From an uncultured Desulfobacter sp. (GTDB lineage: Bacteria > Desulfobacterota > Desulfobacteria > Desulfobacterales > Desulfobacteraceae): a stretch of DNA of 64,000 bases. Positions 57,300 through 57,383 of this stretch are shown piece by piece (the stretch's first letter is position 1; the number at the start of each line of letters is the position of its first letter). The stretch lies in the NCBI GenBank assembly GCA_963665095.1, contig OY762069.1, positions 608,001-672,000 on the forward strand, read 5' to 3'. Below the pieces are notes generated by a model, which saw only the letters and a list, made by a program, of their open reading frames with translations, had not been told where the DNA came from and did not search any database. Both the position numbers and the translations under genes were made by a program.

Positions 57300-57383
57300 A
57301 TGAAAAAAGAATATGTTGCCCCAATGTTTTTCAAACATGCACCGCTGGAATCAGTAAGTACTACTTATTATTACTACTACTAA
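57300..57383 (+). CDS. Putative RiPP precursor MKKEYVAPMFFKHAPLESVSTTYYYYY (27 aa, not in the ORF track)
   Basis: AGGAGGT RBS at 57284-57290; lasso-like leader YxxPxF; directly downstream of the RRE gene; mixed TAT/TAC Tyr codons. Confidence 0.85.
   Translation: MKKEYVAPMFFKHAPLESVSTTYYYYY

Follow-up and report, generated by a model that had tools for sequence, protein, structure and literature searches.

Among the described systems closest to the locus reported here are the gene clusters of phosphorylated and glycosylated lasso peptides, which belong to the RiPPs (peptides made on ribosomes and modified after translation); published work is cited throughout by PMC number. A lasso requires an Asp or Glu acceptor at core position 7–9 and a tail to thread (PMC9266682). 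The leader consensus includes Gly(−8) and Thr(−2) (PMC6856326), and Thr(−2) has been called invariant for lasso peptidases (PMC10885120, PMC6856326). The YxxP motif is common to several RiPP classes, non-lasso ones included (PMC12710340). Kinase and nucleotidyltransferase pairs (PadeK; PsmN) modify lasso precursors by phosphorylation followed by glycosylation or nucleotidylation, the PsmN reaction being still unsettled (PMC9266682). The present analysis concerns an open reading frame (ORF) at 57300..57383 (+ strand) in a 64,000-nucleotide window of contig OY762069.1 from an uncultured Desulfobacter sp., which encodes a 27-residue peptide ending in five tyrosines.

An initial annotation of this ORF had proposed that it is a hidden precursor whose YxxPxF leader is of the lasso type, and conservation in orthologous loci bears this out: the ORF is very probably a genuine, non-lasso RiPP precursor for its cluster. 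The cluster contains 11 genes, encoding a B2-type leader peptidase, a RiPP recognition element (RRE), the precursor, a kinase, an ATP-binding cassette (ABC) exporter, a Kdo-type kinase, a nucleotidyltransferase, a B12 radical S-adenosylmethionine (SAM) enzyme, a SPASM-type radical SAM enzyme, a kinase–nucleotidyltransferase fusion and an AsnB-like amidotransferase. The last three lie just past the window; neither they nor the conclusion that the product cannot be a lasso featured in the initial annotation.

A conserved family of tyrosine-tailed precursors

The precursor gene comprises 27 codons and a TAA stop and sits between the genes for a lasso-type RRE and an HPr-kinase-like protein. A Shine–Dalgarno sequence, AGGAGGT (57284..57290, + strand), lies 9 nucleotides 5′ of the ATG, and the purine-rich site is retained in orthologues. 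The coordinates, translation, ribosome-binding site and numbering of Y5, P8, F10, A14 and S20 given in the initial annotation all agree with the sequence. An in-frame ATG at 57279, which it had offered as an alternative start, is present, but it overlaps the ribosome-binding site, has no Shine–Dalgarno-like sequence 5′ of it and is absent from the same-genus orthologue G038. Because of the overlap and the absence from G038, translation is likely to start at 57300.

The five tyrosine codons read TAT TAT TAC TAC TAC. Across all six frames of the 6.9-Mb genome (G000), this ORF is the single instance of at least four tyrosines before a stop; 0.004 instances of five tyrosines and a stop are expected genome-wide from trinucleotide frequencies, and the two other runs of at least five tyrosines are not stop-terminated. 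The tails of 17 orthologous precursors contain 56 TAT and 54 TAC codons, so the run is not a single-unit microsatellite. The initial annotation took the mixed codons to fit protein-level selection. Comparison with G038 over codons 1–26 gives 12 synonymous changes and one amino-acid change (16 to 4 with L027 and 10 to 4 with L193). Judged by these substitutions, the gene is under purifying selection. The precursor, RRE, B2 and Kdo kinase genes are each single copy in the genome, and the cluster has a G+C content of 43.7%, compared with 48.7% for the genome. The stretch occurs unbroken in four DNA assemblies. Three of them are identical and possibly the source of the stretch; the fourth differs at 12 of 2201 bases, with no difference inside the precursor, which at such a density is uninformative. 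No RNA run is listed among the sequencing runs checked as carrying the stretch.

A search for related loci with the B2 protein alone gave no relative, and an alignment of 50 B12 enzymes, which retrieved 160 loci, was used in its place. Within the taxonomic family, a B2 query matched three of 160 other genomes, each with a Tyr-tailed precursor directly 3′ of the RRE gene. Within the phylum, a SPASM enzyme alignment at E 1e-30 matched 26 of 401 genomes, G000 included. The precursor is conserved in orthologous loci: it is carried by 19 distinct loci from at least four phyla, including Desulfobacterota (Thermodesulfobacteriota), Nitrospirota, Spirochaetota and Cloacimonadota (L005 and L214 repeat L007, and L213 and L006 share the contig of L020; each is counted once). 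The gene counts that follow include contigs that end inside the cluster. The RRE gene is directly upstream of the precursor in 18 of the 19 loci, the remaining contig beginning at the precursor. An HPr-type kinase is found in 19 loci, a nucleotidyltransferase in 17, the SPASM enzyme in 16, B2 in 13, AsnB in 10, the Kdo kinase in nine and a further SPASM paralogue in eight. The B12 radical SAM enzyme is present in all 19; 14 were retrieved through it, and four retrieved through other genes also have it. By comparison, the loci of distant relatives of the B12 radical SAM enzyme, 134 in number (L028–L086, L092–L166), contain no match to the precursor.

A profile built from 17 precursors and searched against 1.84 billion representatives gave 35 matches, 33 of which are family precursors; P0134 (2893 residues) and P0155 were dropped as unrelated. 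The ten family members looked up are all named only as hypothetical proteins. In total there are 49 distinct precursors, a set that leaves out a second, degenerate precursor in L013 and a long one in L026. The leader block Y-x-x-P-x-F-x-x-H-x-P-L-x-x-V-[SA] has a constant length in all 49. The Y and P of YxxP are present in 49 of 49, as part of the anchoring pattern that all 50 sequences tested match, and the Phe in 36. The tail that follows is 7–14 residues long, and 308 of the 478 tail residues (64%) are tyrosine. The number of tyrosines per peptide, which the initial annotation had singled out for comparison among relatives, ranges from 3 to 11. The run is preceded by Thr, Val or Ile in 46 precursors and the final residue is Tyr in 32; no tail contains Cys, a single Asp occurs in the whole set and only one tail has any Asp or Glu.

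The core of Thr and five Tyr, in which every side chain carries a hydroxyl, was correctly described for the focal peptide, but this property does not extend to the family, where Val, Ile, Phe, Trp, Lys and Asn occur in the tails of relatives. By the alignment, tyrosine is the family trait and the all-hydroxyl core is particular to the focal member. The focal precursor has no match in Pfam or NCBIfam, and four of 33 relatives touch the NF033528 lasso_cyano model weakly across the leader, all far under its cut-off. In L013 (6040-6263) two precursor genes stand in tandem, the second being degenerate with a broken Tyr run.

Predicted leader recognition and cleavage

The precursor profile has only two matches in the Protein Data Bank (PDB), both to RRE-bound lasso leaders (from the TbiB1 and TfuB1 complexes; E 0.95 for the TbiA(β) leader and 0.064 for the other), and TbiB1 and TfuB1 are likewise the nearest solved relatives of the RRE profile. 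In a structure model of the RRE with a 34-residue form of the precursor, of the kind suggested in the initial annotation, the complex scores 0.81, compared with 0.02 for the best of three controls; of solved complexes, 116 of 157 attain this mark, and of mismatched pairs two of 215. Contact agreement between runs is at least 92% and the pLDDT (predicted local distance difference test) of the partner is at least 64. The modelled interface covers K2–L16 of the 27-mer and includes the family-conserved recognition motif Y5-x-x-P8-x-F10 (57312..57329, + strand). The model supports binding of the YxxPxF leader by the RRE; its pass may reflect memory, because similar lasso RRE complexes have already been solved.

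In the favoured register, the leader comprises M1–T21 (57300..57362, + strand), a fixed-length block, and the predicted core is T22–Y27 (57363..57380, + strand); the main rival leader is M1–S20. The TbiA(β) leader in PDB entry 5V1U aligns gap-free, with a weak score (E 0.95). This chain is named Thr(−5)Glu and its Glu17 falls on E17, which, together with the lasso consensus (PMC6856326), places S20 at −2 and Y5 at −17, as in the initial annotation. The position after S20 is the most variable and holds residues that are rare in the tail, as −1 might. Two features of the family speak against this register: the −8 position is Gly in none of the 49 precursors, and the −2 position is Thr in only one (Ser in 33, Ala in 10). 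The two positions that anchor the lasso register downstream thus depart from the consensus. V19, which is Val in 41 of 49, could take the place of Thr(−2), giving a cut after S20; alternatively, the Thr, Val or Ile before the Tyr run could do so, placing the cut one residue into the run. Cleavage after T21 is the best of the three registers, at about an even chance, and its statement as a firm prediction was too strong. A cut after S20 is distinctly less probable, and cleavage elsewhere, or none, less probable again.

Organisation of the cluster

The gene for the B2-type peptidase (56456..56920, + strand; 154 residues), a transglutaminase-like cysteine protease, lies at the start of the cluster. 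It matches Pfam Transglut_core3 at 26.3 bits (cut-off 26) and the lasso B2 model NF033537 at 26.8 bits, under the cut-off of 33. Among 12 orthologues C66 and H102 are invariant and E114 is nearly so; no solved relative was found by sequence. The stand-alone RRE (56973..57260, + strand; 95 residues) is of the PqqD/B1 type (Pfam PqqD, E 1e-13). Between the precursor and the kinase lies a 22-pair hairpin (57486..57532, + strand; z −6.9 for 57384-57545), which may stabilise the transcript or attenuate read-through. Neither promoter nor terminator scans yielded a signal above that of shuffled sequences, and the hairpin was not called terminator-like.

The HPr-kinase-like protein (57542..58564, + strand) has weak matches to Hpr_kinase_C and HprK_rel_B and a His-Lys-Asp-Asp motif like that of PadeK; the His, Walker A and Asp-Asp elements are seen in its sequence and in that of its paralogue. 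It is followed on the same strand by an MsbA-like ABC exporter without a peptidase domain (58518..60395, start uncertain; ABC_membrane and ABC_tran, with MsbA the best NCBIfam model, under cut-off), a Kdo/WaaP-family kinase (60392..61222; Pfam Kdo 29.6 bits, cut-off 21.3) and an NTP_transf_5 nucleotidyltransferase (61229..62314; E 2e-34), whose D-x-D motif is retained in 14 of 14 orthologues. The 721-residue B12-binding radical SAM enzyme begins at 62330 (62330..64000, + strand) and extends beyond the window end. Past the window, in contig coordinates, lie the 334-residue SPASM-type enzyme (G000:C1:672507-673511, + strand) and, on the opposite strand and identified by domain matches, the kinase–nucleotidyltransferase fusion (673557-675755) and the AsnB-like amidotransferase (675680-677572). 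The glutaminase Cys1 of the latter is retained in nine of nine sequences. The cluster thus contains three kinase and two nucleotidyltransferase domains, and by sequence the catalytic motifs of B2, the kinases, the transferases and AsnB are intact.

The arrangement varies among loci. In L213 (G008) the cluster is split, with about 12 kb of other genes separating the kinase from the nucleotidyltransferase. Optional genes at the cluster end encode a formyltransferase (L011:15159-15836), a sulfotransferase (L087:13117-14097), which could act on Tyr hydroxyls, and a metallo-beta-lactamase-fold protein (L021:4996-6465). About 16–22 kb past the focal precursor (L001:10939-17043) are genes for a lysylphosphatidylglycerol-synthase-type membrane protein, a single-module nonribosomal peptide synthetase (C-A-T-TE) and a family 28-like glycosyltransferase; these were not seen beside orthologous clusters and probably form a separate locus.

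Radical SAM enzymes and tyrosine-repeat neighbours

By sequence profile and fold, the B12 enzyme (model pLDDT 91) is nearest to the C-methyltransferases CysS and TokK, which are also its nearest solved relatives. Its C-terminal domain contains a second CxxxCxxC motif (residues 485-492, window 63782-63805), which 40 of 50 relatives retain. In L029, L030 and L026, weak homologues of the domain adjoin the B12 gene as stand-alone proteins. Full-length relatives of the enzyme include P0105, P0111 and P0028, whose named sources are two archaeal groups and Planctomycetota.

The SPASM-type enzyme has the corresponding Cys pattern, and its model (pLDDT 83) is closest in fold to SuiB and anSME, followed by BlsE, SkfB and others (TM-score up to 0.62). 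ESM Atlas gave generic radical SAM clusters only. A reading of this enzyme as a viperin was rejected, as that match covers the first 98 residues only (42 bits versus 180). An additional SPASM-type paralogue of 470–520 residues, with an N-terminal extension of 140–170 residues, occurs in eight of the 19 loci (L013:7473-8876, L017:1542-2972, L018:6698-8161, L023:4734-6212, L027, L087, L193 and L194) and is absent from the window's cluster.

Relatives of the SPASM enzyme were matched in 25 other genomes, with wider DNA available for 23; three of these are members of the poly-Tyr family, leaving 20 other loci. In 11 of the 20, the SPASM relative lies directly 3′ of a long Tyr-repeat peptide of 110–160 residues (L198:10084-10497, L199:10068-10499, L200:9851-10333, L201:9544-10020, L202:5077-8142 with five in tandem, L203, L204:3952-4900, L205:10874-11254, L206, L217 and L197:2696-3067); the background is two of 2073 distant small ORFs with equally high Tyr. 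These peptides have a different, twin-Arg-like leader, their loci contain no RRE, B2, kinase or transferase of the poly-Tyr family, and no NCBIfam family names them. The association of SPASM relatives with unrelated Tyr-repeat peptides points to tyrosine as the target of the SPASM enzyme. In a tree of the SPASM enzymes, those of the poly-Tyr family form a single group only if the long branch L208 is included. After the Tyr-repeat and SPASM genes comes an unassigned gene of 290 residues; in the clusters examined, a second radical SAM gene follows, with a family 9 glycosyltransferase (GT9) fused or adjacent. Equating this 290-residue partner of the sister clusters with the B12 enzyme's C-terminal domain found no support, there being no match.

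A third type of arrangement is seen in L026 (17060-17780), where the RRE gene is followed by a 140-residue precursor in which the same leader motif is joined to Ser-Leu-Tyr-Tyr repeats. Its C-terminal domain is weakly like CFI-box-CTERM (E 0.037), and the locus also has several SPASM paralogues, B2, a B12 enzyme and DUF2079. This arrangement suggests that a modified Tyr peptide is exported and anchored at the surface.

Proposed pathway and alternatives

The reading we favour, and hold to be reasonably probable, is an RRE-dependent RiPP pathway with lasso-type leader handling but no lasso, whose enzymes directly and repeatedly modify the Tyr core before release and export. Since the number of tyrosines varies and has no fixed spacing, residue-by-residue modification is expected and not one fixed ring. 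The reactions assigned to individual enzymes are tentative, with odds well below even, and drawn by analogy. The RRE would present the peptide to the modifying enzymes; the SPASM enzyme would carry out radical chemistry on Tyr (a cross-link or side-chain oxidation), and the B12 enzyme would add C-methyl groups at sp3 carbons, most likely Tyr Cβ, as ApyD β-methylates Tyr in a RiPP (PMC11117315). The HPr-type kinases would phosphorylate Tyr and Thr hydroxyls and the nucleotidyltransferases would extend the phosphate with a nucleotide or sugar. Where present, AsnB would amidate the C-terminus, asparagine synthetase (AS)-like enzymes being able to amidate or otherwise cap peptide C-termini (PMC13060819). 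B2 would then remove the leader, most likely after T21, and the ABC transporter would export a short, heavily modified poly-Tyr peptide.

Several observations count against this reading. The SPASM fold also resembles BlsE, viperin and DesII, whose substrates are sugars or nucleotides. At 13–23%, identity to characterised enzymes is too low for reactions to be assigned by homology. Of the 20 other SPASM relatives, nine lack a Tyr-rich peptide in the 1.5 kb upstream, including three that fall inside the Tyr-repeat clade, and seven of the 11 positives belong to one family. B2 is missing from the retrieved DNA in six of the 19 loci; in genome-wide checks of five genomes, that of L023 has it at another place, within the sister locus L026, and the query gave no match in the genomes of L017, L018 and L021, whose completeness is not given. 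AsnB and the Kdo kinase occur in only about half of the loci.

The alternative that carries most weight, though clearly less probable than direct modification, is that the peptide acts as a scaffold. On this view, an activated small molecule (modified nucleotide, sugar or acid) would be assembled first by the kinases and nucleotidyltransferases, perhaps together with the radical SAM enzymes, and a nucleotidyltransferase would load it on Tyr hydroxyls or the amidated C-terminus; the peptide would be a multi-site carrier, and the product either the decorated peptide or proteolytically released Tyr-derived units, perhaps envelope-bound. Fosfazinomycin biosynthesis works in this way, with a YxxP peptide of 22 residues, two kinases, a nucleotidyltransferase and an AS-like enzyme (PMC13622209), and the wealth of kinase and nucleotidyltransferase domains, the unconstrained Tyr number and the match of the SPASM model to BlsE and viperin would all suit such a carrier. 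Envelope-type genes also recur nearby, encoding DUF2079 (L009, L012, L026), a lipid A acyltransferase (L019), an O-antigen ligase (L018) and GT9 (sister clusters). However, the phosphoenolpyruvate (PEP) mutase model TIGR02320 has no match in G000 (97% complete), so there is no phosphonate version; no small-molecule pathway genes are conserved over the 19 loci, the best fold matches are peptide-modifying enzymes and the kinases bear the motif of peptide kinases.

Neither a lasso pathway nor a regulatory function competes seriously with direct modification. A lasso cluster of the paeninodin or pseudomycoidin type would have the AsnB-like protein as its cyclase, and B1, B2, kinase, nucleotidyltransferase, ABC transporter and an asparagine synthase homologue are indeed all in the cluster, as in phosphorylated lasso clusters (PMC9266682). 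The YxxPx(L) motif is there too, with Phe commonly in place of Leu, as are the B1-type RRE and a B2 peptidase with conserved Cys-His-Glu. Yet the focal core has 6–7 residues with neither Asp nor Glu, so it is too short and without an acceptor, and the product is not a lasso. AsnB scores 249 against the lasso cyclase model NF033535 (cut-off 525) but 407 against the asparagine synthase model TIGR01536 (cut-off 267), keeps Cys1 and is encoded in only 10 of 19 loci; the genome has no second precursor, and its two other asparagine synthases lie 4.4 Mb away, the cyclase model having been scored on the cluster AsnB alone. A lasso is therefore extremely improbable. Scarcely better placed is the view that the ORF is an attenuator leader peptide sensing Tyr-tRNA or a chance ORF on a TAY microsatellite. 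Repeated codons for a single amino acid ahead of a strong hairpin resemble amino-acid attenuators, and the Tyr run does precede a hairpin with z −6.9 ahead of further genes. Against this, an RRE motif in the leader is kept across phyla at the amino-acid level, the downstream genes are not for Tyr biosynthesis and z falls below −3 in only six of 18 loci. The mixed codons (56 to 54) and the genome-wide expectation of 0.004 likewise speak against chance.

Novelty and significance

The precursor family is apparently undescribed. Full-text literature searches found no paper describing it, within a coverage that leaves out most subscription papers and large precursor data sets, and no such family appears in the accessible text of PMC7470986, PMC10036551, PMC9062424 and PMC10288494. 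The Tyr run was not found in the supplements searchable as text, a set without the extensive RRE data of PMC12710340 and PMC7470986; poly-Tyr clusters may sit unremarked in large precursor data sets. There is a fair chance that the family is a new RiPP class. In its fullest form, which we rate somewhat below even, this class would have a homopolymeric Tyr core acted on by a Tyr-specialised SPASM lineage, iterative B12 methylation and kinase/nucleotidyltransferase loading of phenols, giving a multivalent phospho-, nucleotidyl- or glyco-tyrosine peptide, with a B2 that has dropped the Thr(−2) rule. The SPASM lineage would also serve a second family, that of the unrelated long Tyr-repeat peptides, and the class would occur in anaerobic and environmental bacteria.

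Being easy to synthesise, the 27-residue precursor is a single substrate with which several uncharacterised enzyme subfamilies can be approached together: CysS/TokK-like B12 radical SAM enzymes with a second CxxxCxxC domain, a Tyr-tracking SPASM lineage, HPr-type kinases and NTP_transf_5 enzymes. The locus likewise offers a natural test of the requirements of a lasso-type peptidase once Thr(−2) and the cyclase are gone. If the Tyr residues are repeatedly modified, site-selective tyrosine chemistry would gain these enzymes as tools, and a RiPP class would be added from little-mined anaerobes.

Comparison with known systems

All parts of the cluster come from known enzyme superfamilies, and judged by sequence models its core and combination of enzymes match no class tested. 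The paeninodin (PadeK) and pseudomycoidin (PsmK/PsmN) clusters are alike in their YxxP leader, stand-alone RRE, B2, HPr-type kinase, nucleotidyltransferase and ABC exporter (PMC9266682). In contrast to these, the poly-Tyr cluster has no macrolactam acceptor, Thr(−2) or cyclase-grade enzyme, its core consists of 6–14 mostly Tyr residues and is not Ser-ended, and two radical SAM enzymes are added. Fosfazinomycin biosynthesis (FzmZ, FzmA, FzmF/K, FzmU, FzmT) also combines a very short YxxP precursor with a discrete RRE, an AS-like enzyme, two kinases and a nucleotidyltransferase (PMC13622209). The poly-Tyr cluster differs in its B2 peptidase, its radical SAM pair and a Tyr-run core in place of a C-terminal Val-Arg; the genome has no PEP mutase (TIGR02320) and AsnB no PqqD domain by Pfam, whereas a fosfazinomycin-type hybrid would have a PEP mutase and an AS-like enzyme with a fused RRE.

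Among systems with radical SAM enzymes, the SynChlorMet cassette (ScmC kinase, ScmD RRE, ScmE/F SPASM enzymes) resembles the poly-Tyr cluster in its RRE, HPr-type kinase and SPASM enzymes, whereas the ScmC and ScmD models score 17.5 bits (cut-off 125) and 31.5 bits (cut-off 100). To our knowledge the cassette has no B2, B12 enzyme or Tyr-run precursor. PqqE makes a Tyr cross-link. MftC, PqqE, RrrB and the repeat-core enzyme TvgB share the SPASM-type Cys pattern and give precedent for Tyr chemistry and repeated modification (PMC9062424, PMC10288494), but all the named families are far under cut-off here. For mycofactocin, TIGR03962 scores 22 bits against a cut-off of 265, and the C-terminal Val-Tyr of MftA (PMC10288494) is not found in the precursor tails, of which only 32 of 49 end in Tyr. 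Aminopyruvatides are likewise RRE-dependent RiPPs with a B12 radical SAM enzyme, ApyD, that methylates Tyr Cβ (PMC11117315); the ApyD model NF050148 scores 45 bits in our cluster (cut-off 750), the RRE is separate, and the loci have no ApyD orthologue, P450, multinuclear non-haem iron-dependent oxidative enzyme (MNIO) or YLY motif. What the locus shares with RRE-dependent RiPPs in general is a small conserved precursor, with a leader and a variable core, encoded beside an RRE and modifying enzymes.
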